This document shows, in pieces, positions 249 to 38,626 of a stretch of 64,000 nt of DNA. Location of the stretch: sequence record OR515477.1, one strand, 5' to 3'. The notes under the pieces were generated by a model that saw nothing but the letters and a program-made list of their open reading frames with translations, did not search any database and was not told the origin of the DNA. Within the stretch, counting starts at the first letter, position 1, and each line of letters starts with the position of its first letter. The translations under genes were made by a program, and so were the position numbers. Source of the stretch: Escherichia phage Es2.

Positions 249-436
249 AACGATTAGTTAGATTTAAGTGTTGTGGTTCCGAGCACATTTTCACACATCT
301 TCGTGAATTTAAAATGTGTGATTGTGGTAAATCAGGCTATGACTCAGGAGATGGGTTCTACACCCGTACTCTAGGGAACTTCAATGATCTAGAATTTGAA
401 GATCTCGAAAAACAAGATAAACCGACCGTTGGCTGA
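245..436 (+). CDS. hypothetical Cys-rich small protein
   Basis: Track ORF; ATGA overlap with upstream ORF; 3' end overlaps predicted tRNA by about 14 nt. Confidence 0.4.
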   Translation: MKRLVRFKCCGSEHIFTHLREFKMCDCGKSGYDSGDGFYTRTLGNFNDLEFEDLEKQDKPTVG

Positions 437-498
437 ATGGCTTAGGCGAAGGATTGCAAATCCTTTTTATGTGAGTTCAAATCTCATGCGGTCGTCCA
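423..498 (+). tRNA. tRNA-Cys (anticodon GCA)
   Basis: Hand-folded: acceptor CGACCGT/GCGGTCG, anticodon stem AAGGA/TCCTT with loop TTGCAAA, T-arm GTGAG-TTCAAAT-CTCAT, encoded CCA. Confidence 0.65.
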
Positions 499-650
499 AT
501 TTGCTGAAAGAATTGTTAAATCAATTCAGGCACGCGTAGGAACACTGTCTCCGTAATTGAAAGATGAGGCACGGTTTGGAGAGGTATGCCGCTACACGCT
601 ACGGTGCTAACTCCGTCTAGGTGAAAATCCTAGTCAGCAATATAAATTTA

Positions 651-733
651 GGGTCGTTAGCCAAGCGGTTTGGCGGTGGACTGTTAATCCATGTCGAAAG
701 ACAACGTAGGTTCGAATCCTACACGGCCCGCCA
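651..733 (+). tRNA. tRNA, anticodon GTT (Asn-decoding) with unusually long variable arm
   Basis: Acceptor GGGTCGT/ACGGCCC, D stem GCCA/TGGC, anticodon loop CTGTTAA, 13-nt variable region, T-arm GTAGG-TTCGAAT-CCTAC, CCA. Confidence 0.6.
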
Positions 734-835
734 AATTCTGTGTAGAGTTAAGTAAACCGGTAGCCAACCAGCTATCATTGCTGATATCGAATTCAGCCAC
801 AGATACCATTTTCATTAATAACTGAGGAAACAAGC

Positions 836-1021
836 ATGTCCAAGAATGTAATTGCACAGCTAGAAGTTCATCGTGATAACACAGCTAATAACATTAAGTG
901 CCGACAAAAAGATATTGAAGCTCGAAAGGCTGATCTTTTAATGAGTATTCGAGAGCTTAATGTACGGAAAGAGTTTCTTAAAGAACTTAATGCAGCTATT
1001 GAAAAACTCAAAGTTGAGTAA
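836..1021 (+). CDS. hypothetical coiled-coil protein
   Basis: Track ORF with GAGGAAA RBS. Confidence 0.55.
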   Translation: MSKNVIAQLEVHRDNTANNIKCRQKDIEARKADLLMSIRELNVRKEFLKELNAAIEKLKVE

Positions 1022-1030
1022 ATAAATTAT

Positions 1031-1107
1031 GCGACCGGGGCTGGCTTGGTAATGGTACTCCCCTGTCACGGGAGGGAATGTGGGTTCAAATCCCATCGGT
1101 CGCGCCA
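1031..1107 (+). tRNA. tRNA-Asp (anticodon GTC)
   Basis: Perfect acceptor GCGACCG/CGGTCGC, anticodon stem CTCCC/GGGAG with loop CTGTCAC, T-loop TTCAAAT, CCA. Confidence 0.8.
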
Positions 1108-1132
1108 AATTAATTTAGTATGAGAATATACT

Positions 1133-1480
1133 ATGCGTAATGCTAAAGAAGAGTTGTTACTTGCCTTAAAAAATACTAATTCTGAAGTTAAATGTATTAA
1201 AATAGAATTCGGGTATTATGGGGATAAAAAAGTTTGGGTATTACCTTTAGGTTATACAGAAAAAGATATTGAGGATTTTCTTAATAATCTAGACTTTAAG
1301 TACGATTCTGGGTATGGTGGGCAATTACTTTATGGTAATGTATGGTTTGCCGACGGAACTTGGCTAGAACGTGGGGAATACGATGGTGCTGAGTGGTGGG
1401 AGTACAAAGCTACCCCGGAAATTCCAGAGGAATGCCGAACAATTAATGGTGAAGTAGATAATACTTTACTATTAAACTAA
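1133..1480 (+). CDS. hypothetical early protein
   Basis: Track ORF, 115 aa. Confidence 0.55.
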   Translation: MRNAKEELLLALKNTNSEVKCIKIEFGYYGDKKVWVLPLGYTEKDIEDFLNNLDFKYDSGYGGQLLYGNVWFADGTWLERGEYDGAEWWEYKATPEIPEECRTINGEVDNTLLLN

Positions 1481-1872
1481 AAGAATTTCAGTGCAGAACA
1501 CGGAGCTAGCAATTCGGAAGTGCTGACTCATGATAAGCTGCCTATGTACTTGCTAAGCGGTCGTGTCCAAGACTCGGACTCTTGCACTGAAAACAATCAA
1601 ACATTCTAGCGTGGTTGATGGGGAAACCAGCTTGGCTAGGGCAGAAGCTCGTTCGATTCGAGTGAAAGAATGGTTCTCGTAAGTCCGCACAAGTGATAGC
1701 AGGTTCGAGTCCTGTCTAGAATGACACTATAAAGTTTACTTATTATGTAGGTTCCGATAGATCGGCGGGTCTATTCTGGCATTTAAGAGAAGTCTCGCAA
1801 ACTTCTTTGTCAGCCGTGGGGTTGGTAGCCTCCAGGTGGCCTACACAATAAGTAAATTTATTAAAAATTCAT

Positions 1873-1901
1873 TTGCTATTTTTCTTAATTATCTGTATAA
1901 T
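1873..1901 (+). promoter_or_regulatory. early-type sigma70 promoter (TTGCTA - 17 bp - TGTATAAT)
   Basis: -35 TTGCTA at 1873, extended -10 TGnTATAAT at 1894-1901, conserved AT-rich leader and GAGAAGG RBS. Confidence 0.7.
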
Positions 1902-1933
1902 ATATTTTATAAAGTGAAGAGAAGGAAAGCAAA

Positions 1934-2083
1934 ATGAAACACAAGATAGCCCAAGTTTTTATGGCATTATGGTGTATGCCAATAGCTATAACAGCATTTA
2001 ATCTAGATACTTTTACTATAGAAGAAAAATGTATCGGATTAGTTAGCGGCTTTAGTATGCTTGGCTTATCTTTGTTGTGGTTG
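1934..2083 (+). CDS. hypothetical 49-aa hydrophobic peptide (below ORF-track size cutoff)
   Basis: Hand translation MKHKIAQVFMALWCMPIAITAFNLDTFTIEEKCIGLVSGFSMLGLSLLWL; directly downstream of promoter and RBS. Confidence 0.5.
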
Positions 2084-2096
2084 AAGAAATAATATT

Positions 2097-2174
2097 CTCC
2101 GTGTAGCTCAGTTTGGCCAGAGCGTTTCGTTTGGGGCGATAGGGTCGGGGGTTCAAATCCTCCCACGGAGACCA
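2097..2174 (+). tRNA. tRNA-Pro (anticodon TGG)
   Basis: Acceptor CTCCGTG/CACGGAG, anticodon loop TTTGGGG, T-loop TTCAAAT, CCA. Confidence 0.65.
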
Positions 2175-2180
2175 AACAAT

Positions 2181-2258
2181 TGCGGGTTAGATCTCTGGTA
2201 GAGATCGCTAGTCTCATAAGCTAGAAAGAGGTAGGTTCGATTCCTGCACCCGCTTCCA
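2181..2258 (+). tRNA. tRNA-Met (anticodon CAT)
   Basis: Anticodon stem CTAGT/GCTAG with loop CTCATAA, T-arm GTAGG-TTCGATT-CCTGC, CCA. Confidence 0.65.
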
Positions 2259-2278
2259 TTTTAATAGAGGATTTCGAA

Positions 2279-2446
2279 ATGAAAGTATTTCGATTAGTAG
2301 TAAGTGACAAACGGTTAGGTAAGAATACATCAAAATCCCTACTCGCTCATTACGGTAAAAATTGGGATGAAGTAATGGCAGAGTTTAGTACTAATCACCC
2401 TTACTTGAAAGTTCACTCTATTAAAGAAGTATATAATGGTTACTAA
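2279..2446 (+). CDS. hypothetical 55-aa protein (below ORF-track size cutoff)
   Basis: Hand translation MKVFRLVVSDKRLGKNTSKSLLAHYGKNWDEVMAEFSTNHPYLKVHSIKEVYNGY; AGAGGA RBS; sits between two tRNAs. Confidence 0.45.
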   Translation: MKVFRLVVSDKRLGKNTSKSLLAHYGKNWDEVMAEFSTNHPYLKVHSIKEVYNGY

Positions 2447-2447
2447 T

Positions 2448-2526
2448 AGATCGCTAGCTCAATAGGTTTAGTAGCATCCGACTTTTAATCGGAAGGTTCT
2501 GGGTTCGAGTCCCAGGCGATCTACCA
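2448..2526 (+). tRNA. tRNA-Lys (anticodon TTT)
   Basis: Perfect acceptor AGATCGC/GCGATCT, anticodon stem TCCGA/TCGGA with loop CTTTTAA, T-arm CTGGG-TTCGAGT-CCCAG, CCA. Confidence 0.75.
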
Positions 2527-2530
2527 AATT

Positions 2531-2604
2531 GCTCGGTTAGTTTAATGGGAGAACCCCGTCTTTACACGGCGGTTGAGATAGTTCAATTCTATCACCGAGT
2601 ACCA
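2531..2604 (+). tRNA. tRNA-Val (anticodon TAC)
   Basis: Acceptor GCTCGGT/ACCGAGT, anticodon stem CCGTC/GGCGG with loop TTTACAC, T-arm GATAG-TTCAATT-CTATC, CCA. Confidence 0.65.
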
Positions 2605-2623
2605 ATTAACTCAAAATAAGGAA

Positions 2624-2983
2624 TTGCAAATGCAATTATCAAGCAAGATTCAAGGTTATTTCGGTCATGTAACAATGGAGTTCGCTATCTCTAAAGGTTG
2701 GGACTTCGAACAAGATTTAGCTGAGTTCTACAAAGATATTGATCTGAACGTACCGTACATGGGACTTTCTACTGGTCAGGAGATCACAGAAGCCGATGTA
2801 TTCAAGGCAAGTCAAGGTGAGGTAACACCTAGTTTTGCCGAGTTCTGGTTAGGCATTACGTTAAAAGAAGATGCACCAGATAGTGGTGTACTAATGTCTA
2901 GTATGCACTCTGGAAGTTCCGATTACCTTTTCATTAGCGATGTTAAGGAAATACAAGAAGTCTGCAAAAATGTACTTGCTTGA
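2624..2983 (+). CDS. hypothetical early protein
   Basis: Track ORF, 119 aa, AAGGAA RBS. Confidence 0.6.
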   Translation: MQMQLSSKIQGYFGHVTMEFAISKGWDFEQDLAEFYKDIDLNVPYMGLSTGQEITEADVFKASQGEVTPSFAEFWLGITLKEDAPDSGVLMSSMHSGSSDYLFISDVKEIQEVCKNVLA

Positions 2984-3004
2984 TGCTTAATTTCTTGTTA
3001 TAAT
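2976..3004 (+). promoter_or_regulatory. early-type sigma70 promoter feeding the tRNA block
   Basis: TTGCTT - 17 bp - TATAAT; leader contains hairpin GATGAGGAGAAATCCTCATC; no ORF follows, tRNAs downstream. Confidence 0.65.
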
Positions 3005-3242
3005 ATTTATATAAATTGATGAGGAGAAATCCTCATCATAGTTCACTAAGGTATTAGCTCGACCTAGGACTGGCTGCCAAAAAGCACGATCCCTACGATT
3101 CGGGAAAAGTTCTAGATTGGTCCACTAGATTCAGCGGCAACTGAATAGTGTATTGGGTTTGCGAGATGACGTAGTTCCTTCCGCTCTAAGCGAAGGTGCT
3201 GTAGTTACGCCGAGCTAATAGCCTTAGTAAACTAAAGAATTT

Positions 3243-3321
3243 GGGGAATGGGTCTGCATGGAGTGGACACCTCGCTTGCACCGAGGACATCAGAACGGTT
3301 CGATTCCGTTATTCTCCACCA
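3243..3321 (+). tRNA. tRNA-Ala (anticodon TGC)
   Basis: Acceptor GGGGAAT/ATTCTCC, anticodon stem CCTCG/CGAGG with loop CTTGCAC, T-arm AACGG-TTCGATT-CCGTT, CCA; 7-nt variable loop. Confidence 0.65.
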
Positions 3322-3326
3322 AATAC

Positions 3327-3403
3327 GCGTGATTGATGGAATGGGCATACATACCGTCCTTAGAAGTCGGGTTTTGAGGGTTCGAATCCCTTGTCACGCA
3401 CCA
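3327..3403 (+). tRNA. tRNA, anticodon TAG (Leu-decoding) with short variable loop
   Basis: Acceptor GCGTGAT/GTCACGC, anticodon loop CTTAGAA with one stem mismatch, T-arm GAGGG-TTCGAAT-CCCTT, CCA; isotype uncertain. Confidence 0.5.
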
Positions 3404-3515
3404 AATTTGATGGTCAGAGTAAATTAAACCTACTATCTCGGTTGAGCTGTTTTAATGGGTTCGAATCCCAGCGGGGCGTAACTGCCTGGTGTGATAGAGG
3501 CATCATCTTATTATT

Positions 3516-3606
3516 GGAAGAGCAAATCGAATTGGCGACGAAAACCGCTTGGAAAGTGGCTGACTGGTAAAACGGCTTGAGAGTTCAAATCTCTCCTCTT
3601 CCGCCA
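3516..3606 (+). tRNA. tRNA-Ser (anticodon GGA), type II
   Basis: Perfect acceptor GGAAGAG/CTCTTCC, anticodon loop TTGGAAA, long variable arm, T-arm GAGAG-TTCAAAT-CTCTC, CCA. Confidence 0.7.
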
Positions 3607-3618
3607 AACAATTTATAT

Positions 3619-3713
3619 GGTAGGTCAATCCAATGGCTGGCGCTGGACTCCGACTTGAAATCGGTTGATCGTAGTGATACGGTGTAAGGGTTCGATCCCC
3701 TTACCTACCTCCA
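3619..3713 (+). tRNA. tRNA-Ser (anticodon TGA), type II
   Basis: Perfect acceptor GGTAGGT/ACCTACC, anticodon loop CTTGAAA, long variable arm, T-arm AAGGG-TTCGATC-CCCTT, CCA. Confidence 0.7.
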
Positions 3714-4079
3714 AATCTTGAAGTATGCCGGAATCGGTAGACGGGGCTGCCTAAAAGGTTTATAGGGAACATCCACTCCCTGCAACATACCTCATAAAGC
3801 GGCTGAGATAAATGGTCTATCTCGTGAAGGTTCAAGTCCTTCTGCTTCTTGATACATCTATGGCTCAAAGTGTAACGGTGCTATTTGATGCTCTTGGTAA
3901 GACTTCCCCGACATGCGTTCGGGAGTAAGCTGCTAAGACTAGAGTAGAAGAGTTTCTGAGAGCCGCCACAATTGAAAATTCGTACTCGTCTTGAGCTGCG
4001 CGCAATAGGAGATAACTTGATTAGTATTCTAGAACATGCTAATTGAGGAAGGTTTCGCTAACCCTGCGAGTTTTCAATT

Positions 4080-4156
4080 GTGGCTATATCATAATTGGTT
4101 AATGATCCTGATTGTGAATCAGGCCTATGTGGATTCGAATTCCACTAGCCACCCCA
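4080..4156 (+). tRNA. tRNA-His (anticodon GTG)
   Basis: Perfect acceptor GTGGCTA/TAGCCAC, anticodon stem CCTGA/TCAGG with loop TTGTGAA, T-arm GTGGA-TTCGAAT-TCCAC, CCA. Confidence 0.8.
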
Positions 4157-4180
4157 AATTAACTTAAATAGGAAATAAAT

Positions 4181-4387
4181 ATGGCTGATTTCTGCAAACA
4201 ATGCTCCATTGATATGTGGGGTAAAGATACTGGTGATCTTTCTGGTTTGATTACAGAAGCTGAAGTTAAAGAAGGCTACGGTGCTGCTGTGATCTGCGAA
4301 GGATGCGGAGTTATTCGAGTAGATCATGAAGGCAAACGTTTAGAAGATCCAAAAAGTATTAAGAAGAAGGTTAGCCAAGTAGGTTAA
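4181..4387 (+). CDS. hypothetical CxxC-CxxC small protein
   Basis: Track ORF 68 aa, AGGAAA RBS; 3' end overlaps next tRNA by about 23 nt. Confidence 0.5.
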   Translation: MADFCKQCSIDMWGKDTGDLSGLITEAEVKEGYGAAVICEGCGVIRVDHEGKRLEDPKSIKKKVSQVG

Positions 4388-4440
4388 GGCTGGGGTCTCT
4401 GAAATCCTGATCAGTGGTTCGAATCCACTACCTTCTGCCA
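4365..4440 (+). tRNA. tRNA-Gln (anticodon CTG)
   Basis: Perfect acceptor AGAAGGT/ACCTTCT, anticodon loop CTCTGAA, T-arm AGTGG-TTCGAAT-CCACT, CCA. Confidence 0.65.
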
Positions 4441-4446
4441 AACAAT

Positions 4447-4524
4447 TGGGGATTAGCTTAGCTTGGCCTAAAGCTTCGGCCTTTGAAGTCGAGATCATTG
4501 GTTCAAATCCAATATCCCCTGCCA
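4447..4524 (+). tRNA. tRNA-Gln (anticodon TTG)
   Basis: Acceptor (T)GGGGAT/ATCCCCT, anticodon stem TCGGC/GTCGA with loop CTTTGAA, T-arm ATTGG-TTCAAAT-CCAAT, CCA. Confidence 0.65.
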
Positions 4525-4535
4525 GCTAAATTAAT

Positions 4536-4610
4536 GCGTGATTAGTTCAGTGGCTAGAATAACTGGCTTCCAACCAGTAGACACGAGTTCGACTCTCGTA
4601 TCCCGCACCA
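4536..4610 (+). tRNA. tRNA-Gly (anticodon TCC)
   Basis: Acceptor GCGTGAT/ATCCCGC (one mismatch), anticodon stem ACTGG/CCAGT with loop CTTCCAA, T-arm ACGAG-TTCGACT-CTCGT, CCA. Confidence 0.65.
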
Positions 4611-4624
4611 AATAAGGAAACGTT

Positions 4625-4846
4625 ATGCACGTTTTTGAGTTTCGTAATAAAAATACTGATAAGCGAGTTATCATTATTGGAGAAACATACCGAGCATATG
4701 AACAAACTGACGGCTCTGTTATCTTGAATGATGAGAAAGGAGGTTTTAGCTTTTATCCAGAAGAACCTTATGAAGAGTTTCGTACTAAGTTTCTTTTACC
4801 AGACTGGCTAGCAGTAGCCGAGCAACGAGAATCCGAAGATGGCTGA
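4625..4846 (+). CDS. hypothetical early protein
   Basis: Track ORF 73 aa, AAGGAAA RBS. Confidence 0.55.
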   Translation: MHVFEFRNKNTDKRVIIIGETYRAYEQTDGSVILNDEKGGFSFYPEEPYEEFRTKFLLPDWLAVAEQRESEDG

Positions 4847-5003
4847 TAACCTAAAATTAAGGGTCGACAAACAAAAGAAATACATTGAGGTTGAATTAGG
4901 CGAAGAACGATTAAAGCTAACTTTCGAGTTTCTTCAGCAGTTGGCTATGACAGTTATGACTGATAAGTCTCCTGTTATTGAAAAAGAAATCCCGTTGAAA
5001 TAA
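4839..5003 (+). CDS. hypothetical 54-aa protein (below ORF-track size cutoff)
   Basis: Hand translation MADNLKLRVDKQKKYIEVELGEERLKLTFEFLQQLAMTVMTDKSPVIEKEIPLK; start overlaps upstream stop (ATGGCTGA). Confidence 0.45.
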   Translation: MADNLKLRVDKQKKYIEVELGEERLKLTFEFLQQLAMTVMTDKSPVIEKEIPLK

Positions 5004-5013
5004 CGGGATCATC

Positions 5014-5088
5014 GCTCCTAAAGCATTGCTGGCGATGCAGTTGCCTTGTAAGCATCTGAACCGGGTTCGATTCCTGGTGGGAGCACCA
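5014..5088 (+). tRNA. tRNA-Thr (anticodon TGT)
   Basis: Acceptor GCTCCTA/TGGGAGC, D stem GCAT/ATGC, anticodon loop CTTGTAA, T-arm CCGGG-TTCGATT-CCTGG, CCA. Confidence 0.65.
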
Positions 5089-5103
5089 AATTTAAAAATT
5101 CAT

Positions 5104-5132
5104 TTGCTTTCTCTCTTATTTATTGTTATAAT
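5104..5132 (+). promoter_or_regulatory. early-type sigma70 promoter
   Basis: TTGCTT - 17 bp - TATAAT, then conserved leader ATAAATTAATGAGAGG. Confidence 0.7.
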
Positions 5133-5162
5133 ATTCATATAAATTAATGAGAGGGAAGCCAA

Positions 5163-5456
5163 ATGAAACGTTATCTTTCTGTTGTGTTCCAAACTGGTGG
5201 TCAACGCTATACTTACGAATTTCCTGGCTCTTGGAAGATCAAAGAAGGTGATCAAGTAGTAGTGTTAACACCGCGTGAGGGTTTTAAGGTAGTAACGGTT
5301 AAGCAAGTATTTCCAAAAGAGCGTGAACCAGCTAAAGGCATTCGCTATAAGATGATTCATGGTGTAGTTCGTCAAGTACCACGAGCGGAAGTCGAAATCA
5401 AAGTAGATAAAGATGGTAAACTTAAATATACCTCTTGCTTAGACGAGTTGCTATAA
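5163..5456 (+). CDS. hypothetical early protein
   Basis: Track ORF 97 aa, promoter and RBS upstream. Confidence 0.6.
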   Translation: MKRYLSVVFQTGGQRYTYEFPGSWKIKEGDQVVVLTPREGFKVVTVKQVFPKEREPAKGIRYKMIHGVVRQVPRAEVEIKVDKDGKLKYTSCLDELL

Positions 5457-5662
5457 TGAGGATTACTTTTACAGAAAAGATCATGAGTAATGGTGTTATG
5501 ATCATTACCGCATGGGATGGTAATCAGTGGTGTAGTGTTTCAGGTATTAAGCCTGAAGAACAAACACTAGATAATATCTCAAAGATTAAGCGAAGAATGA
5601 CAGAACGTGCACGACTTCCAGGTGCACCTAGAAATGGCAAACGTTCTGCTGCAAAATGTTAA
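5456..5662 (+). CDS. hypothetical early protein
   Basis: Track ORF 5435..5662 trimmed to in-frame ATG at 5456 that overlaps upstream stop (TAATG). Confidence 0.5.
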   Translation: MRITFTEKIMSNGVMIITAWDGNQWCSVSGIKPEEQTLDNISKIKRRMTERARLPGAPRNGKRSAAKC

Positions 5663-5663
5663 T

Positions 5664-5740
5664 GCTTCGGTAGCTTAGCGATCTAAAGCACTCGGCTGAT
5701 AACCGAGAGATCGGGGGTTTAAATCCCTCCCGGAGTACCA
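5664..5740 (+). tRNA. tRNA-Ile (anticodon GAT)
   Basis: Perfect anticodon stem CTCGG/CCGAG with loop CTGATAA, T-loop TTTAAAT, CCA. Confidence 0.65.
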
Positions 5741-5836
5741 AATTTAGGAATTAAGACTATGCGTCCAGGAAAGTTTAAAAAAGCTAATTGGTCTAAAGAG
5801 TATAAAGAATACTTACTTAGTCTAGTAAAACATAAT

Positions 5837-5912
5837 AGTTAGTTGGCAGAGTGGTTATGCACCTCCTTCATACGGAGCGACTACAGTGGTTCAAATCCAC
5901 TACTAACTACCA
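5837..5912 (+). tRNA. tRNA-Met (anticodon CAT), second copy; initiator/elongator/Ile2 not resolved
   Basis: Perfect acceptor AGTTAGT/ACTAACT, anticodon loop TTCATAC, T-arm AGTGG-TTCAAAT-CCACT, CCA. Confidence 0.65.
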
Positions 5913-30016: not shown

Positions 30017-31681
30017 ATGATTATTTCCGCAGAAAAACAAACCGTTATCCTGAAAATGGCCGCTGACTTTAATTTCTATGGTAAACGTCTGCGCGCCACT
30101 AAACTGGAGGTCTGCGACGATATATCAAAAGCGGTCTACGATACAACAAAACACTCGACCGCCATTTGTGATTGGCTGGAAGCAAATAAACCAGTTAAAC
30201 CAAAAGCTGCAAAAGTAGCAAAAGCTATTAAAAACGATGAGCGCCCCGAAGCGGCTGGGATCGTTTCTAGCACGGTTGAACAGTGGGAAGTAAAACAAGG
30301 CAAACGCTTTATTATTACGTCGATTCAGAATAATACTTTCCCGCATAAAAACTTTTTGGCCTCGCTTGAACAGTATGCTAAATACATCGGCGCTGATTTG
30401 CTTGTTTCTAAGTATATTTATAATAAAAACGGCTTCCAAAATGGTGAAGGTGCGGATGGAATCAAATATGATTCCGCGTTCGATAAGTATATTTGCAGCA
30501 AAAACGTGTTTTTAAACAACCGCCGTTTTGCTTTCATGGCTGAAATTAACGTTTTGCCTACCGCAGATTATCCGCTTTCTGGATTCGCTGAAACTGCAAC
30601 GGCGCTTAATCTTGAAGGTCTGGCAATTGGTCACGCTAAAATCACCGCCGAAAGCGTGCCAGCTTTAAAAGGTGAAGTAGTACGCCGCATGTACTCAACC
30701 GGAACGGCAACGCTAAAAAACTACATTCAGCAGAAAGCAGGGCAAAAAGCGGAAGCGCTGCATAACTTCGGTGCGCTGATTGTTGAGTTCGACGAAGACG
30801 GTGAGTTTTTTGTACGCCAGCTTGAAACAATGGACGAAAGCGGGGTGTTTTATGATCTGAATGTTTGCGCTACTCCCGCAGGATGCTATGAAACATCGGG
30901 GCATGTTTTAGGTTTACAATATGGCGACATCCACGCAGAAAAATTAGATGATGATTGTGCCGTTGCGTCATGGGCTGGCGAAAATAGCTTGCTTGATATT
31001 CTTAAACCAAAATATCAGTTTATCCATGACGTTCACGATTTTACATCTCGCAATCATCATAATCGTGCGTCCGGTGTATTCCTAGCGAAACAGTACGCCG
31101 CCGGACGTGATAAAGTTCTGGATGATCTTATCGATACGGGGCGCGTGCTGGAATCAATGGAACGTGATTTTAGTCAAACGATCATTGTTGAATCGAATCA
31201 CGATTTGGCGCTATCCCGTTGGCTGGATGATCGTAATGCTAACATTAAAGACGATCCAGCAAACGCCGAACTATATCACCGCCTGAATGCTGCAATTTAC
31301 GCGGCAATCGGTGAACACGACGAAACGTTTAACGTGTTAGATTATGCGCTGCGCAAGGTTGCAGGTTGCGAGTTTAACGCCATTTTCCTAACAACTGACC
31401 AATCATTTAAAATTGCAGGCATCGAGTGTGGCGTACACGGTCACAACGGCATTAACGGAAGCCGTGGCAATCCTAAACAGTTTAAGAAATTGGGCAAACT
31501 GAACACGGGGCATACGCATACGGCAAGCATTTACGGCGGGGTATACACCGCTGGCGTGGCTGGTAGTCTGGACATGGGTTACAACGTTGGCGCGTCAAGC
31601 TGGACGCAAACGCATTTAATTACCTATGCAAACGGTCAGCGCACTTTGATTGACTTTAAAAACGGTAAATTCTTTGCGTAA
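30017..31681 (+). CDS. A1: A1-like pre-early protein with metallophosphatase motifs
   Basis: Track ORF 29960..31681 trimmed to ATG at 30017 with GGAG RBS (554 aa); ESNHD and GHTHT phosphoesterase-like motifs. Confidence 0.7.
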   Translation: MIISAEKQTVILKMAADFNFYGKRLRATKLEVCDDISKAVYDTTKHSTAICDWLEANKPVKPKAAKVAKAIKNDERPEAAGIVSSTVEQWEVKQGKRFIITSIQNNTFPHKNFLASLEQYAKYIGADLLVSKYIYNKNGFQNGEGADGIKYDSAFDKYICSKNVFLNNRRFAFMAEINVLPTADYPLSGFAETATALNLEGLAIGHAKITAESVPALKGEVVRRMYSTGTATLKNYIQQKAGQKAEALHNFGALIVEFDEDGEFFVRQLETMDESGVFYDLNVCATPAGCYETSGHVLGLQYGDIHAEKLDDDCAVASWAGENSLLDILKPKYQFIHDVHDFTSRNHHNRASGVFLAKQYAAGRDKVLDDLIDTGRVLESMERDFSQTIIVESNHDLALSRWLDDRNANIKDDPANAELYHRLNAAIYAAIGEHDETFNVLDYALRKVAGCEFNAIFLTTDQSFKIAGIECGVHGHNGINGSRGNPKQFKKLGKLNTGHTHTASIYGGVYTAGVAGSLDMGYNVGASSWTQTHLITYANGQRTLIDFKNGKFFA

Positions 31682-31735
31682 TTAAATTATTACCCTAGCG
31701 GCTTGAAATACAGCCGCTATTATAGGAGTCAAAAA

Positions 31736-31993
31736 ATGAAAGTTACATTACCCAAAACATTAGACGAAAAAGCGTTTATTTCCCCCGATGAAATGGAATC
31801 CGATAAAGTTTACAGCTTCGGGCCTATCCTAGCCGCCAAAACTAATACTGATGGAATTATTACAGTCGATTATCGTGATAATGATATTGTTCCCTTTGAC
31901 GATGATGACGCTTTTTACGAGTGGTTAAGCGATAATAATTTACCCGTAAGTGGTGAATTAACGCCGTATCAGATGCAAATCATTATCAAATAA
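31736..31993 (+). CDS. hypothetical pre-early protein
   Basis: Track ORF 31703..31993 trimmed to ATG at 31736 with AGGAG RBS. Confidence 0.55.
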   Translation: MKVTLPKTLDEKAFISPDEMESDKVYSFGPILAAKTNTDGIITVDYRDNDIVPFDDDDAFYEWLSDNNLPVSGELTPYQMQIIIK

Positions 31994-32032
31994 TTTAAAT
32001 CCCCTTATTAAACTAATTGGAGTTTTATAACT

Positions 32033-32425
32033 ATGAAAAAGCAAAATATCCCATTCGACCGCGCTCAGTCCTCAATTGTTCTGGTTTATTCCAACGGCGA
32101 ACGTTACCACGTCGAGGCGGGGCACGTTATTGATGACCTATTAGATTTCAATGACGCTTTGCAGGTTACTACCTTTGCATATACGCAGGGCAAACTAACC
32201 AGCCATATTAAAGCAAAAGGCGTTTATGTTGACACGGTGAAACAAGAAACGATTATCATCGACGCCGTAAAATCCGGCCTAGCCTTTGCAGTTGTCGCGC
32301 CTTGCCTCGCTTGCCTTGATGATCAATTGATTAGTGCAAAGGTCTACACATGTGCGGGGATTCGTTCTAGCGTATCCGGTGAGGATGTTAGTTTTATCGC
32401 TGATGCGTTGGCTTATGGTCTTTAA
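32033..32425 (+). CDS. hypothetical pre-early protein
   Basis: Track ORF 130 aa, GGAG RBS. Confidence 0.6.
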   Translation: MKKQNIPFDRAQSSIVLVYSNGERYHVEAGHVIDDLLDFNDALQVTTFAYTQGKLTSHIKAKGVYVDTVKQETIIIDAVKSGLAFAVVAPCLACLDDQLISAKVYTCAGIRSSVSGEDVSFIADALAYGL

Positions 32426-32505
32426 TAGTTGATTTATTATTGCCCGCTTATAAATAGCGGGTAATGCTGAATTAATCTAATCCCTTAAATGGAGAACGTA
32501 ACAAA

Positions 32506-33240
32506 ATGAGTCAAGTTAAAACGAATATTACCCGCTCTTTCCCGCATATTTCCCGCGTTATGATTTGGGATCTGGACGGCACTATCATTAATTCTTTCCA
32601 TCGTGTAGCGCCTTGTTTTGATAGCGAGGGCAATTTAGATTTAAATAAATATAAAAATGAAGCCTGCAAACATCATTTAATAATGCAGGATTCATTATTG
32701 CCATTAGTTGAATATATGCGCCAGTGTATGAATGACGCTAACACGTTAAACATTATTTGCACCGCTCGACTGATGAGCAAGTCAGATTATTATTTCTTGC
32801 GTAAACAAGGATTGCGGGGGCGTGGAAATAGCAATATCCGCGTGTTTTCCCGCGATACCCTGCACAAATACTTTAAAGCTGATAAAGTTAGCGAGATATA
32901 CCACAGTAAGGACGCAGTTTATAAATCTTATTATTTTGAATTATTTAAACAATTATATCCGAACGCTGATTTTACAATGATTGATGATCATAAAGGCGTG
33001 TTAGCGGCGGCGGCATCATACGGATTTAAAACGCTGGACGCACAAGCCGTTAACGATATTCTATCAATCGGTGTTACATTGATTGGTGAAACCTTTATTG
33101 ATGAATCGCTCGACGATGATAATGATTATCAGTTCCTAGCAGACCGCCTGCAATTATGTTGGGAAGGTATGACCGAGGAAGAACGCGCAGAATATAGTTG
33201 CAGTCCTCAACAGTACATCGAGAAATTAAAAGTTGCATAA
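32506..33240 (+). CDS. dmp: 5'-deoxyribonucleotidase, HAD family
   Basis: 244 aa; HAD motif I IWDLDGTIINS; size and position match my recollection of T5 dmp. Confidence 0.75.
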   Translation: MSQVKTNITRSFPHISRVMIWDLDGTIINSFHRVAPCFDSEGNLDLNKYKNEACKHHLIMQDSLLPLVEYMRQCMNDANTLNIICTARLMSKSDYYFLRKQGLRGRGNSNIRVFSRDTLHKYFKADKVSEIYHSKDAVYKSYYFELFKQLYPNADFTMIDDHKGVLAAAASYGFKTLDAQAVNDILSIGVTLIGETFIDESLDDDNDYQFLADRLQLCWEGMTEEERAEYSCSPQQYIEKLKVA

Positions 33241-33397
33241 TAATTAAAGTTGAAATAGTCACGGTGTGTAATGATAACATGCCGTGACTATTAGTCTGCT
33301 AAGTACCGGGCGGTAATGAGACTCATTCTCATCTGGTGGGCCACTGGACACACCTCCATGTGTAATCTTATGAAATTTGGCAAAAAGGTAATTAGCG

Positions 33398-33601
33398 CTA
33401 TTTACGGACTGACTGCTCAAAGACTTCCCGCCACAGAGGGTCAGTCTTAACTAGATTATTAATATGCTCAATAGCTTCATCAAATCTCATGAATCCTTCC
33501 GGGATTTCCGAAGACTTAGGAAAAACTTGCAGCATCTCCTGTGTGATACCCATCTTTTCAAGATCTTCTTGGGTTAACTTAAACTGTCCGAATTCTTTCA
33601 T
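33398..33601 (-). CDS. hypothetical protein
   Basis: Track ORF 67 aa. Confidence 0.5.
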   Translation of the reverse strand: MKEFGQFKLTQEDLEKMGITQEMLQVFPKSSEIPEGFMRFDEAIEHINNLVKTDPLWREVFEQSVRK

Positions 33602-33843
33602 GAACTTCTCCTGTCTACCGGCTTATCTCCAGATTCTGACATACGAAATCTCTTTCGTGACGCCCGAGAACCGTCCGCCCACTCCCTCTCAAACTCCGCA
33701 CGTTTCTTCGCAAACCTCCGCTCTCTTTCCGCAATCTCCCGCGACACTTCCGCAATATATTTACGATGCGTATTAATAGCCGCAGTCATTCCGAAAACTC
33801 CCGCGATTACCCCGATAATAAAAGCAATTACAATACTAAACAT
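33598..33843 (-). CDS. hypothetical single-pass membrane protein with charged tail
   Basis: Track ORF 81 aa; N-terminal TM helix then Arg/Glu-rich region. Confidence 0.5.
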   Translation of the reverse strand: MFSIVIAFIIGVIAGVFGMTAAINTHRKYIAEVSREIAERERRFAKKRAEFEREWADGSRASRKRFRMSESGDKPVDRRSS

Positions 33844-34030
33844 CTAGTTCTCTCTCAATTTGCAGAATACGAGTGCTATCACAACGTTGCAATTCTACTA
33901 ATTTTTCTATAGCAAATTGTTGTTGTTTTACCTGGGCCTCTAGAGTTTTTAGGCGAACGTACACGGTGTAAGAAATAATGAAAGCTGACCAAACTGCTAG
34001 TACTATTAATATAGCTACTACTTCCATCAT
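33836..34030 (-). CDS. membrane micro-protein, paralog c
   Basis: Track ORF 64 aa MMEVVAILIV...; TM helix plus coiled-coil tail; ATGA overlap with paralog b. Confidence 0.5.
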   Translation of the reverse strand: MMEVVAILIVLAVWSAFIISYTVYVRLKTLEAQVKQQQFAIEKLVELQRCDSTRILQIERELDV

Positions 34031-34134
34031 TTACGTTTCTCCAGTAACAGAGTTTCAATTCTAGCTAAGTGGTTATCTAAAATACATTGCCCGATAATCA
34101 CAATCCCTAGTAGTGCAATAATTACCCATTCCAT
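34027..34134 (-). CDS. membrane micro-protein, paralog b (35 aa)
   Basis: Hand translation MEWVIIALLGIVIIGQCILDNHLARIETLLLEKRK; below track cutoff. Confidence 0.45.
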   Translation of the reverse strand: MEWVIIALLGIVIIGQCILDNHLARIETLLLEKRK

Positions 34135-34289
34135 TGTTTACGCTCCTCTAATAAAATTTCAATCCTAGATAATCTGTTACTCAACTGCATTAATTTAGCT
34201 TCTACTTGTGTTATAGAGGTATCTATTACACGTAAGCCTACAAAGAGAAGTATCAGTAAGATGAATATGCCAATAATTACCCATTCCAT
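34122..34289 (-). CDS. membrane micro-protein, paralog a (55 aa)
   Basis: Track ORF 34122..34319 trimmed to MEWVIIGIFILL start that overlaps upstream stop (TAATG). Confidence 0.5.
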   Translation of the reverse strand: MEWVIIGIFILLILLFVGLRVIDTSITQVEAKLMQLSNRLSRIEILLEERKQWNG

Positions 34290-34480
34290 TAAATCCACCC
34301 CGCCATAGCTGCTAACCAAAAACCTACGAAAATAAAGAATAGGATAGTTCCGAACCCAAAACTATTTATCCAGCTATCATATACCTCTCCACGTCTGCTC
34401 TTTCTTTTGTTTGACATATCTTTCATGCTCCTATAAATGTGATTTTTGAAATATTCTATAATTTGTGCACAACCGACCAT
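34289..34480 (-). CDS. hypothetical membrane protein
   Basis: Track ORF 63 aa; C-terminal hydrophobic segment. Confidence 0.5.
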   Translation of the reverse strand: MVGCAQIIEYFKNHIYRSMKDMSNKRKSRRGEVYDSWINSFGFGTILFFIFVGFWLAAMAGWI

Positions 34481-34593
34481 GCCTGTGAACTCATAGAAGG
34501 ACTTCTACTTTTCTTACATAGTGGTTTCTGCCAATATACCATCCAAGAAATAAAAAATTTAGTTTACTTGGATGTCTTTTTGTTTTATACTAA

Positions 34594-34860
34594 TTACAGG
34601 TAATTAGATTGCTCTAGTTTAAATTTACAATCACCGTATTTAAGGTCAAACTGACTGAGATCCCACCACCCAAACTTAGTACGGAGCTGTACTACTGGAA
34701 AGCGATCTCCCTTAATACGAACTTTTTGAACCTTGAGGCCGTAATGTTCCTCTCCAGCACCACCAAAAGATTTTACAAACCCCGTACAAAATGGTTTGGG
34801 GGCAGGTGCACAACCAGATAACATAACTGCGGCAACTAGTGCAATCACAAACTTTTTCAT
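34594..34860 (-). CDS. llp: Llp-like lipoprotein (candidate receptor-blocking lytic-conversion protein)
   Basis: 88 aa; signal peptide with lipobox LSGC; divergent from the receptor-binding protein gene. Confidence 0.65.
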   Translation of the reverse strand: MKKFVIALVAAVMLSGCAPAPKPFCTGFVKSFGGAGEEHYGLKVQKVRIKGDRFPVVQLRTKFGWWDLSQFDLKYGDCKFKLEQSNYL

Positions 34861-34945
34861 ATTTATCTCTCCATTTCTAATTTATGAATCTATTATAGCA
34901 AAATAGAGAGATGAAAGCAAATACATTTTTATAATAGGAGATTAT

Positions 34946-36703
34946 ATGGGTTTTTTCGCTGGAAAATATAGCGATGGTAAGACCGTACTATCTTTAAATA
35001 CTGAATCTGGTGGTGACATTAATCGTCACTATAGCCCAAATGCCAATAGTATTTTTCATAGTGATATGCCATTTGTCCTAGTTGATGGTACTTACGAGGC
35101 TGGGTTAGGTAATGCCGGGAATGGGTTTTTTGTATGTCAAATGCCCTCTGACATAATAAATATTAAATCTAATGACCCGGGTAGAGTTATACTAACTGCT
35201 ATTGAAATTAATGGTACTCACAGAGCTTTTCTTAATGGTACTCAGAGTAAGGTTGGTCAAACTATAGTTGCCACTCAGGCAGACCCCTTTAGGTCTTTTG
35301 CCAGTGTTTCTCAAACCAGTGGATTTGCATTTGGTAATAGTCTAGCATCTGGCACTTATAACTACAACCCCTCTCTAGGGCATGAAGAATCTATCTCTAG
35401 AAGTGGCACAGGGGGTACTACGTTACATAGTACGTATCATGGTATAGTTAGGCCCGGTGGTGGAGCACCTGTAGGAGTTACTGTTGCAGAAGCCTTTGCA
35501 CAATTAGGTTTTCCTACTAATAGTAGCACAGTACCTGTAGATGGTAATAACCCATACTATTGGGATCCTGGATGGATGGCTCCTCTAGGAGCAGCATATA
35601 GGGGGCATGATTGGTTTTATGTTTGCAATTCTAATATACGTGGATATGGTGGGGTTAGGCAAGGGCTCCCTGGTAATGTAAATACTATGTACCATGATGG
35701 TGGTAATAGATTTGTTTGTAGAGGGTCTACTACTAATTTAGCTAACCAGTCGGGTGACTCTACAATACTACAGGACTGGTATAATATAACTCCTACTAAG
35801 GTTATTTGGTATGTTCTTAATTTAAGGTACTCAAATGGTGGAATGAGTATTTCAGGTAACCCTTTCACTGGTTCTGATATTCTTATATCTCCTTCTAATT
35901 TTATAATTAAAGGGGTAAGTCTCCCTAATACCGGGTATAAATTTATTAATCAGAATGCTTTTGGTAACCTAGGTTACCGTCCTGATATGGAGTATATAGG
36001 GAATAACGCTGCGTATACTGGGGTTTTTGGGGATACCACTGCAAGGTGTGAACTTGTAGGATCTAGTAATGGAGGGTTGTGGTCTCCTGTAGATTATGGA
36101 GGTGCCAAATCACAGATTAGCATTTACAAATTTGGAGCAGGTAAACAGTGGTATGTAAACTCTAACGATAATACTATTGGTAATGAGCATGGGGTTGTTT
36201 GGGGACCATCAGCAGTTCCATTACGACTTTTTGGAGGAAATGTAGGTAGCTCTTACATGGGGGATGATATTACTCCTAGCTATCCAGGAACTGGGGATAG
36301 GTACGTTGGTTTATCAACTATTGGGCTAGGTATACCTGGTGGCAATGCTACAGTAATTCTTACTACTGAAGTTATATCAGGTAATCTTAACTGTGCAGGT
36401 GTCCCAGCTAACACATGGAATAATGGTGTGTTTCAAGTACAAGGAAGAAAAGCGCATAGTTATAGTAATGGAGATGCAATATTCCACCAGATTCTAACGC
36501 TACCTGTGGGCTATCTAGTACCTTTTCATACTACAGCAGCTTTTAGATACACCCCTAATAATGCTTTAAGCAGGAATAGTTTTATATATACCGCTAAAAA
36601 CCTAGGAAATGGAAATGTAGAGTTAGGGGTAGTTATGCATGTCAGTTTAGGTAGTGCAGTTTTCTTACCTAGACTAAGAGTAACAGTTCAACGCCTTACC
36701 TAA
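34946..36703 (+). CDS. oad: receptor-binding tail protein (pb5-like)
   Basis: 585 aa, Gly/Asn-rich; position next to llp and before terminase; receptor identity not determinable here. Confidence 0.65.
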
Positions 36704-36713
36704 AGGAGGAAAT

Positions 36714-37196
36714 ATGGCAAATGATGTACTAGTACCAGATCTTATGTCCCCTGAAGGGATGGATGTGATTGAAGCTTATTTACAGTGCGGCAGCGATGTG
36801 CCTTCTGCCGCACGTAGTCTTGGAATGTCCGAAATTGCTTTCCGAGATATTATGAATCGTAGTGAAGTTAAGAACTACTTAAATGATATTTTTATGGAGA
36901 GTGGTTTCCGTAATAGGGATCGTTTATTTGGTGTTCTAGATGAAGTTATTAAACGTAAGCTAGAGGAGCTAGAAGAAACTGGCATGGGTTCTGACCAAGA
37001 TATTATGGATATTCTCTGGAAAGCACATAAAATGAAAATGGAAGAAATGAAGATGATGGTAGAGTTGGAAAAAGCTAAAGCTGCTGTCCGTGCTCCTGCT
37101 AATCAGACCAATATTCAGAATAACATTATTGCTGGAGCTGGGGATCAAAACTACATGGATTTAATTACTTCCCTAGCTACTGGAGGTAAAAAGTAA
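36714..37196 (+). CDS. terminase small subunit
   Basis: 160 aa, directly upstream of and overlapping the large terminase gene. Confidence 0.7.
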
Positions 37197-38512: not shown

Positions 38513-38626
38513 ATAAGTATAGGATGGGATACTACTCAGTTGGTATCCCATTCCTGCATTTTAAAATCCCCTTTACAAATTCGATACGATTATGTATACT
38601 ATATTCATACAGTTGAGGAGAACACT

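Follow-up and report, generated by a model that had tools for sequence, protein, structure and literature searches.

The RNA2 element of T5-like phages: a conserved non-coding gene with a tRNA cloverleaf scaffold and a fixed insert in the anticodon loop

Introduction

The genes for the "stable RNAs" of bacteriophage T5 were reportedly cloned in the early 1980s by the group of Ksenzenko, Kryukov and Bayev. In the T5 record, rna2 (a misc_RNA of 125 nt) is labelled "tRNA-like stable RNA with unknown functions"; next to it come rnaIV ("stable RNA with unknown functions") and then promoter P13a. The same rna2 annotation is found in BF23 (AJ604530) and in T5 AY692264, where the term "stable RNA" is the annotation given by the depositors. 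A literature search found no paper describing T5 RNA2, and RNA2 has been annotated for about two decades, since the T5 and BF23 records of the mid-2000s, with no function assigned to it. Because RNA2 has no Rfam family, annotation pipelines ignore it or overlay it with "hypothetical protein" CDSs.

The T5 tRNAs are documented counter-measures to tRNA-cleaving defences (PMC11464382, PMC10644984). The T5 tRNA cluster is known for its counter-defence tRNAs (PARIS, retron Eco7), which makes RNA2 an obvious candidate for a related role. The mutant T5Mos, which carries the deletion 30661-38625, is viable and forms plaques on laboratory E. coli (PMC11464382). This deletion covers rna2 (32959-33083), which indicates that RNA2 is accessory and dispensable for plaque formation on laboratory E. 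coli.

In this work, an RNA2 element in a T5-like phage was analysed by sequence comparison, covariance modelling and folding. We add to the existing annotation a scaffold backed by covariation, which corresponds to a tRNA-Arg(CCG) split by a fixed insert of 48 nt that bears a second T-loop, a list of invariant motifs, and the phylogenetic range of the element (Markadamsvirinae, Sugarlandvirus, My1, KEY and Novosibvirus, and not Vibrio phage Cody). RNA2 is a conserved, structured, non-coding gene that consists of a tRNA cloverleaf scaffold with a fixed insert in the anticodon loop, and it is a well-defined, overlooked candidate in a region now known to be important for phage counter-defence.

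Results

Identity and layout of the element

The window, i.e., the whole stretch of DNA that was analysed, comprises 64,000 nt of Escherichia phage Es2 (OR515477.1), a T5-like phage whose best matches in a sequence search include IME178 and GSP044. The element in this window scored 151.3 bits (E ~7e-35) with the covariance model R1, and it is 96.6% identical over 146 nt to NC_005859 32950-33095 (T5 rna2, T5s06). Judged by its sequence, the element is a homologue of T5 RNA2, and as such already known and not new. The preliminary description of this stretch did not recognise it as an annotated RNA; of the "tRNA-derived regulatory RNA" that it offered as one possibility, the tRNA-derived nature agrees with the "tRNA-like stable RNA" annotation of T5 and BF23. 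The features of the element are as follows.

1603..1726 (+): complete RNA2 homologue (124 nt), running from the 5' end of the acceptor to the third nucleotide after the discriminator
1603..1609 (+): acceptor stem 5' strand AUUCUAG, which pairs with 1716-1722
after 1609 (+): CG between the acceptor 5' strand and the D-arm
1612..1629 (+): D-arm, 5-bp stem UGGUU/AACCA, loop GAUGGGGA with the conserved GG
1630..1634 (+): 5' strand GCUUG of the anticodon-stem equivalent (P1a), which pairs with CAAGU at 1690-1694
1635..1682 (+): 48-nt insert interrupting the anticodon loop; its in-silico removal gives an ARAGORN tRNA-Arg(CCG)
1647..1663 (+): inner T-arm mimic (P4), 5-bp stem GCUCG/CGAGU, 7-nt loop UUCGAUU
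1676..1682 (+): CUCGUAA motif, invariant in the Markadamsvirinae, Sugarlandvirus, My1 and KEY copies
1683..1689 (+): GUCCGCA anticodon-loop remnant, N32 U33 C34 C35 G36 C37 A38, with "CCG" at 1685-1687
1695..1698 (+): variable loop GAUA, 4 nt
1699..1715 (+): T-arm GCAGG-UUCGAGU-CCUGU, directly preceding the acceptor 3' strand
1716..1722 (+): 3' strand of the acceptor stem, CUAGAAU, matching ATTCTAG at 1603-1609 in all seven pairs
1723..1726 (+): discriminator G, then ACA, not CCA

The sequence observations of the preliminary description were all reproduced. ATTCTAG (1603-1609) and CTAGAAT (1716-1722), which it had described as perfectly paired, are exact reverse complements; the T-arm GCAGG-TTCGAGT-CCTGT that it called canonical lies directly before the acceptor 3' strand; its second T-arm-like motif at 1647-1663, GCTCG-TTCGATT-CGAGT, has a 5-bp stem and a 7-nt T-loop; and G1723 is followed by ACA, so that no CCA is encoded, as it had stated. 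The "about 45 extra nucleotides" that it noted in the body are present and can now be given as the 48-nt insert, and the hairpin-rich region 1480-1870 resolves into three separate modules and a promoter.

The Es2 element has the same length as RNA2 of T5 and BF23 and occupies the same place, in the tRNA cluster and on the tRNA strand, after the T5.067 homologue (1133-1480) and before the equivalents of RNA IV and P13a. It differs from T5 RNA2 by point differences only, e.g., G1630, where T5 has A, so that the pair at the base of P1 is G-U here and A-U in T5, and A1720 (G in T5). The T5 rna2 annotation begins one base earlier, which corresponds to C1602 here, and C1602 can pair with G1723.

Three features of a canonical tRNA are present, namely the 7-bp acceptor stem, the D-arm with GG and the T-arm with a UUCRANY loop. 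The canonical 7-nt anticodon loop, with U33 and a purine at 37, is absent and is replaced by a 55-nt domain. P1a is extended by the pairs G1635-C1688 and C1636-G1687, with A1689 bulged. The insert itself contains the invariant GGG (1639-1641), the inner hairpin, an A-rich joiner, AAUGG (1669-1673) and CUCGUAA (1676-1682).

ARAGORN called 16 tRNAs in the window at default settings, from 423 to 5912 and all on the + strand, and did not call the RNA2 element; all 16 of these tRNAs encode CCA, and the RNA2 element does not. In Rfam, the element matched RF00005 neither at the gathering score nor at E ≤ 10 and did not reach the threshold for a canonical tRNA. Only tRNAs were found in the window at gathering thresholds, and nothing relevant was found in 1400-1950 at E ≤ 10: the searches with tRNA, tmRNA and intron covariance models that the preliminary description had proposed returned no Rfam match to the element even at this level.

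Covariation of the stems

The folding energy of the single RNA2 sequence is ordinary (z = −0.41); therefore, the support for the structure rests on conservation and covariation. Within the window, we counted T-arms that have a TTCRANY loop and run directly into a 7-mer whose perfect complement lies 60-140 nt upstream. This motif occurs nine times, always on the + strand in the tRNA cluster and including 1603-1722, as against 0.01 per window in shuffled sequences.

For the structure comparison, about 35 distinct sequences were sampled out of the roughly 476 phage copies; the alignment A1 contains 26 distinct RNA2 sequences, and the model-based alignment A2 contains 30. Across the 30 distinct homologues, 95.6% of the cells in paired columns are paired. 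Changes on both sides were found in 17 of the 29 pairs, compared with 2-5 when the partners were slid by 1-3 columns, and none of 500 shuffles matched the observed pairing values. Covariation thus backs all four stems of the cloverleaf (acceptor, D, anticodon-like and T) as well as the inner hairpin.

All seven pairs of the acceptor stem vary on both sides between lineages. Three unrelated and fully complementary acceptor stems were found, ATTCTAG/CTAGAAT, AGACAAT/ATTGTCT (Erwinia KEY) and TACGGGG/TCCCGTA (Klebsiella phages), and Proteus phage 1 has a fourth acceptor-stem sequence. In the D-stem, four of the five pairs change on both sides and 99.3% of the cells are paired; in the T-stem, two pairs change on both sides, three are invariant and 98.7% of the cells are paired. 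The alignment pairs 31-96, 32-95 and 33-94 of the anticodon-type stem also change on both sides. The model R1 fits real tRNAs to the scaffold by skipping 55 interior positions, and the stem 1630-1634/1690-1694 then falls on the tRNA anticodon stem.

The stem of the inner hairpin takes four forms: GCUCG/CGAGU; GCUUG/CAAGU (S113); UACGG/CCGUA (Klebsiella, UTK0010 and My1 phages); and CUGGG/CCCAG (Proteus phage 1). These forms were taken by direct reading, as both A1 and A2 place the hairpin one column off in some lineages. The loop is constant, being the 7-nt UUCRAYU in all lineages. The inner hairpin is an exact mimic of a T-arm.

The most conserved positions of RNA2 lie in its interior, where GGG 1639-1641, AAUGG, CUCGUAA and UCCGCA are all invariant in A1. 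The acceptor stem and the discriminator (G, A or U) vary freely between copies. Mismatches at the top of the acceptor stem are found in some lineages, as A1-C72 in UTK0010 and U2-U71 in Epseptimavirus. Some lineages do encode CCA, namely Erwinia KEY (A-CCA), Klebsiella K7 and GZ8 (U-CCA), and UTK0010, EH5 and OSY-STA (G-CCA). The mismatches and the missing CCA of the T5-type copies show a relaxed constraint on the aminoacyl end. A relaxed aminoacyl end fits an RNA that is not charged, yet it also weakens any claim of CCA addition.

Fold of the insert

The nucleotides UCC 1684-1686 have two partner options. Pairing with GGG 1639-1641 would lengthen the anticodon-type stem and bury the old anticodon, and pairing with GG 1672-1673 would make a small hairpin with a CUCGUAA loop. 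Covariation does not help in choosing between the two, because all the columns concerned are invariant; the sole variable pair, 1642/1683, is C-G in Tequintavirus, U-A in Epseptimavirus and U-U elsewhere. Folding with the proven helices enforced prefers GGG 1639-1641 as the partner in most lineages; pairing with GG 1672-1673 agrees slightly better with OSY-STA, a natural recombinant, and with L135, a variant from a metagenome. In the intact RNA, the GUCCGCA remnant is predicted to pair with GC (1635-1636) and GGG (1639-1641), and CUCGUAA is predicted to be wholly or largely unpaired in the competing fold models.

Several further structures were considered and set aside. The helix AGAA/UUCU (1643-1646 with 1674-1677) is predicted thermodynamically and is not conserved, as its register is shifted in group B and it is broken in OSY-STA and Proteus phage 1. 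A class II tRNA with a short anticodon arm AGCUU/AAGCU and a long variable arm would require a helix that is not conserved in the Klebsiella phages, whereas P1 covaries. The reading of CUCGUAA as a mimic of the tRNA-Thr(CGU) anticodon loop was weakened, because Proteus phage 1 has CCCCGUAA, with no equivalent of U33, and the closing helix is poorly supported. CUCGUAA carries C32, U33, A37 and A38, and the loop of the T5-type tRNA-Thr is CUUGUAA.

The interrupted tRNA-Arg(CCG) scaffold

When 1635-1682 was deleted in silico, the remaining 76 nt were called as tRNA-Arg(CCG) by ARAGORN at default settings. The same call was obtained for the insert-deleted copies of three of five lineages at default settings (window, Klebsiella, UTK0010) and of all five at the 90% threshold. 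When long introns were permitted and the threshold was reduced to 80%, ARAGORN read the intact copies of the window, Klebsiella and Proteus as tRNA-Arg(ccg) and placed an intron of 47-48 nt near position 34. "Interrupted tRNA", another term of the preliminary description, is accordingly a good description of the architecture, and its "permuted tRNA" is not supported, since the arms are in the normal order. The insert is 47-53 nt long across the lineages and, besides the second T-arm-like hairpin, it holds the invariant single-stranded motifs AGGG, AAUGG and CUCGUAA.

These calls raise the question of a genuine intron-containing tRNA-Arg(CCG), in which the 48-nt insert would be excised and the exons ligated to give a decoding tRNA that reads CGG. 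Besides the ARAGORN calls of the intact form in three lineages and of the forms spliced in silico, the invariance of U33, C34, C35, G36 and A38 speaks for such a tRNA. The identity elements of E. coli ArgRS are A20, C35 and R73, and RNA2 has features that resemble them, in that, in most members, the D-loop GG is followed by an A and the discriminator is a purine. However, the discriminator varies among G, A and U, and the T5-type copies lack CCA. At 48 nt, the insert falls far below the size of a group I or group II intron, its point of insertion is 31/32 and not 37/38, and it showed no match to a known intron class in Rfam at E ≤ 10. No splicing machinery of bacteria or of T5 is known to act on an insert of this kind. 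The loop of the insert-deleted form would read N-U-CCG-C-A, in which U33 and A38 are normal and C37 is not; to our knowledge, C at position 37 essentially never occurs in functional tRNAs.

Moreover, the insert is more conserved than the exons, and no allele free of it was found among the matches listed in a BLAST search with an insert-free query (382 records), in which whole-query matches consisted of two pieces spanning 123-125 nt. One record annotated as "tRNA-Arg", PQ002169, was examined as a candidate and proved to be a deletion hybrid of the 5' part of tRNA-Arg(UCU) and the 3' part of RNA2. The depositors, too, annotate a stable RNA of 125 nt. On balance, a spliced tRNA-Arg is unlikely.

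Distribution and genomic neighbours

A BLAST search with 1590-1735 matched 476 phage records, mostly Salmonella, Escherichia and Klebsiella phages of Demerecviridae, together with Pectobacterium My1 and Erwinia KEY. The range of RNA2 covers Tequintavirus, Epseptimavirus, Sugarlandvirus, My1, Erwinia KEY and Novosibvirus; the last is represented by a divergent copy in Proteus phage 1, which scored 56.4 bits with R1, compared with at most 28.8 for the tRNAs of that phage. The exact core pattern was found in 27 IMG/VR contigs and 11 metagenome contigs, all T5-like, and all 11 metagenome matches fit the covariance model. For the tail-tube protein encoded in the window, 907 homologous records were found, of which 539 reach ≥60% identity. 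From about 476 against about 539 records, which come from two different searches, RNA2 is present in roughly nine tenths of the enterobacterial T5-like phages.

Outside this group, the tRNA cluster of Vibrio phage Cody gave no RNA2 match with R1. A protein search of IMG/VR with the T5.067 homologue yielded close T5 relatives and unrelated phages, and R1 found no RNA2 in the unrelated ones. In bacterial genomes, six matches to the core pattern were found, which is about the number estimated by chance, and none of them fit R1. E. coli genomes showed no sequence similarity to RNA2, which indicates that no host RNA was copied at the sequence level.

The neighbours of RNA2 differ between genera. 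In Epseptimavirus it follows tRNA-Lys(CUU) and precedes tRNA-Gly or an HNH gene, in Sugarlandvirus it follows tRNA-Leu, and in both Erwinia KEY and Proteus phage 1 tRNA-Thr comes immediately after it. RNA2 thus behaves as a movable module of the tRNA cluster. In several Epseptimaviruses, an HNH endonuclease gene is located immediately downstream of RNA2, and mosaic RNA2 variants occur beside the HNH gene.

A role mainly in cis, either as a signal for the processing or stability of the flanking transcript or as a DNA target or landing pad for homing endonucleases, would be in line with the HNH genes and mosaic variants just described, and with the location of RNA2, which closes a transcription unit and is shortly followed by RNA IV and promoter P13a. 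The flanking genes, however, are wholly different between genera while the element is kept; a DNA target site has no need of a cloverleaf; and the covariation is of the RNA type, being strand-specific and tolerant of G-U. A role of this kind is therefore considered highly improbable.

The preliminary description also named a degenerate duplicate, and RNA2 could be a decaying tRNA pseudogene, a passenger with no function in a recombination-prone tRNA cluster. CCA is missing in the Es2 lineage, the acceptor stem has mismatches in some lineages, a deletion hybrid with tRNA-Arg(UCU) exists, and the region is a dispensable deletion hotspot (PMC12483538; PMC11464382). Decay is contradicted by the compensatory changes, including those of the inner hairpin, which keep five helices across at least five genera, by the lack of an insert-free allele among the matches listed, and by the insert, which is the part most conserved across genera and whose long invariant runs persist in Proteus phage 1 (56 bits) despite its diverged stems. 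With RNA2 present in about 476 records against about 539 enterobacterial T5-like records, decay is very hard to credit.

The last alternative, a small protein, is effectively refuted: the ORFs 1563-1682 (+) and 1553-1690 (−) exist mechanically and several genome records annotate "hypothetical protein" CDSs over the stretch, but the substitutions in the stems are compensatory and not synonymous, and RNA2 is non-coding because the lineages differ in length by 1, 2, 3 or 5 nt inside the overlapping ORFs, the indels of 1, 2 and 5 nt being frameshifting.

Discussion

Proposed nature and role of RNA2

As described above, every RNA2 copy found carries the insert, and no other part of RNA2 is as well conserved. 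RNA2 is probably a non-decoding tRNA mimic that is matured by the tRNA-processing enzymes and whose conserved insert is functional. As the acceptor/T-arm minihelix is what these enzymes recognise, RNA2 would be cut from the polycistronic tRNA transcript by host RNase P at its 5' end and by trimming enzymes at its 3' end. In the T5 lineage, CCA may be added by the host CCA-adding enzyme or may be absent. The molecule would fold into an L-shaped tRNA mimic, in which an elongated, irregular arm of about 65 nt replaces the anticodon arm.

Such an RNA would be unable to decode, because the former anticodon is paired in the preferred fold and the loop is replaced. If it does not decode, RNA2 would act as a stable, tRNA-scaffolded RNA with the insert as its functional ligand. 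The contrast between the variable aminoacyl end and the invariant interior points in the same direction, suggesting that the insert is the functional surface and that the tRNA body is a scaffold for processing and stability.

The likeliest partner may be a host or phage protein that recognises tRNA, such as a synthetase, a modification enzyme or a tRNA-targeting defence nuclease, with RNA2 serving as a decoy or modulator. Of the roles considered, this one is put forward as the most likely since the T5 tRNAs are documented against tRNA-cleaving defences; being drawn from the genomic context, it is offered only tentatively. A more specific form is equally tentative: RNA2 might be a natural tRNA-scaffolded effector, a mimic derived from tRNA-Arg that uses its invariant insert and its masked anticodon loop to bind and neutralise an enzyme of the host that recognises tRNA. 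Candidate targets are an anticodon-arm nuclease from an anti-phage system or a bacteriocin, ArgRS, and a modification enzyme. If true, the effector reading would add a non-decoding RNA decoy to the known supply of cleavage-resistant tRNAs of T5. Among bacteriocins, colicin-D-like enzymes cut tRNA-Arg at 38/39, and this site corresponds to the position of the conserved bulged A1689.

Comparison with known RNAs

The nearest functional and architectural analogue of RNA2 is the species 1 RNA of T4 (rnaC). Like RNA2, it is a small stable RNA of unexplained function in a phage tRNA cluster, with a 3'-proximal T-arm and long extra hairpins; unlike RNA2, it has neither a scaffold of the RNA2 type with D-arm and anticodon stem nor a second T-loop. 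Homology with the T4 RNAs was rejected, as R1 gave only 13.7 bits (E 0.016) for rnaC, which is less than for the real tRNAs of T4, and nothing for rnaD. Within T5, rna2H is unrelated to RNA2, and rna3 gave only a weak, generic tRNA-like match.

YrlA, a bacterial Y-RNA-like RNA, resembles RNA2 in being a non-coding mimic of the tRNA elbow by means of T-arm and D-arm elements. Its 5' and 3' ends, however, form a Ro-binding stem, not an acceptor stem with an NCCA-type tail, and membership of RNA2 in this family was rejected since no Rfam match was found even at E ≤ 10. The tRNA-like domain of tmRNA shares with RNA2 the retained acceptor stem and T-arm and the replacement of the anticodon region by another structure. 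RNA2 differs from tmRNA in lacking a tag reading frame and pseudoknots, in being a third as large, and in having a complete D-arm. The ARAGORN tmRNA search was negative, also at the 80% threshold, and the pair 3:70 of RNA2 is U-A, not G3-U70.

The engineered "tRNA scaffold" chimeras, in which Ponchon and Dardel in 2007 reportedly replaced the anticodon arm by a cargo RNA, follow the same design as RNA2: the acceptor, T and D arms are kept, which gives tRNA-like processing and stability, and the cargo is placed on the anticodon stem. RNA2 differs from them in being natural and in carrying as its cargo a conserved 48-nt domain.

RNA2 and its flanks in the window

The features adjoining RNA2, the tRNA-like homologue of T5 rna2, are as follows.

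1486-1592 (+): 107-nt stretch lying 3' of the T5.067 homologue and 5' of RNA2
1745-1847 (+), with extended stem 1732-1862: homologue of T5 rnaIV, annotated in T5 as 'stable RNA with unknown functions'
1873-1901 (+): sigma-70-type promoter match (TTGCTA, 17 nt, TATAAT; 10/12)

The stretch on the 5' side is predicted to be closed by a stem of about 10 bp (UUCAGUGCAG/CUUGCACUGAA), and its folding z-score is only −0.94. The T5 equivalent, which carries no annotation in the T5 record, was matched weakly (5.5 bits) by R1, the covariance model built on RNA2 homologues. On the 3' side, the rnaIV homologue is predicted to form a four-way junction with three hairpins and a long closing stem, and the folding z-score reaches −4.97 when the extended stem is included (1732-1862). 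It has no T-loop, and Rfam gives no match to it.

The promoter match is strong and occupies the position of the T5 promoter P13a, which places RNA2 and RNA IV at the end of the upstream transcription unit. No intrinsic terminator was detected.

RNA2 in other phages

The RNA2 loci of other phages that are discussed here are given below, with coordinates within each locus.

L084, 588-790: Erwinia KEY, RNA2 followed by tRNA-Thr, 3-7 nt apart
L141, 15560-15763: Proteus phage 1, RNA2 followed by tRNA-Thr, 3-7 nt apart
L144, 658-737: Salmonella phage vB_Sen_SG_WM_RUS_R2 (PQ002169), hybrid annotated 'tRNA-Arg'

Erwinia KEY and Proteus phage 1 belong to distant lineages, and in Klebsiella phage EK80 a tRNA-Thr lies two genes 3' of RNA2; the gene order suggests that RNA2-tRNA-Thr may be an ancestral synteny.

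In several Epseptimaviruses (loci L087, L125, L127, L089 and L126), RNA2 is directly followed on its 3' side by a gene for an HNH endonuclease, for which OSY-STA and phage 2-3 show 77% identity, and a mosaic RNA2 is found beside one HNH variant. OSY-STA, EH5 and UTK0010 have the 3' part of RNA2 in common, where the common tract reaches progressively further 5'. These mosaic tracts look like co-conversion tracts from homing.

The PQ002169 hybrid begins as a tRNA-Arg(UCU), of which it has the 5' two thirds, and changes to the RNA2 3' end within the T-arm; its two ends are non-complementary, and ARAGORN does not call it. It probably arose by deletion, through recombination between the T-arms.

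In many phage records (e.g., PMBT29, chee130_1 and Seabear), RNA2 is overlaid by automated 'hypothetical protein' CDSs or left unannotated, because an RNA family model for RNA2 does not exist.

Other tRNA-like genes in the window

736-808 (+), approximate, just 3' of tRNA-Asn: probable homologue of T5 rna3, judged from its first bases
3516-3606 (+): class II tRNA-like gene, CCA encoded, anticodon loop GGA
3619-3712 (+): class II tRNA-like gene, CCA encoded, anticodon loop UGA

The first bases of the element at 736-808 resemble the start of T5 rna3, a 73-nt 'putative tRNA-like RNA' in the T5 record. Neither class II gene was called by ARAGORN or, at the gathering score, by the Rfam tRNA model; the tRNA-Sec model gave only 19.7 bits for 3516-3606 and 37.6 bits for 3619-3712, and R1 gave 20.7 bits for 3516-3606. 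Because their anticodon loops read GGA and UGA, the two genes are presumably a tRNA-Ser pair of the T5 type.
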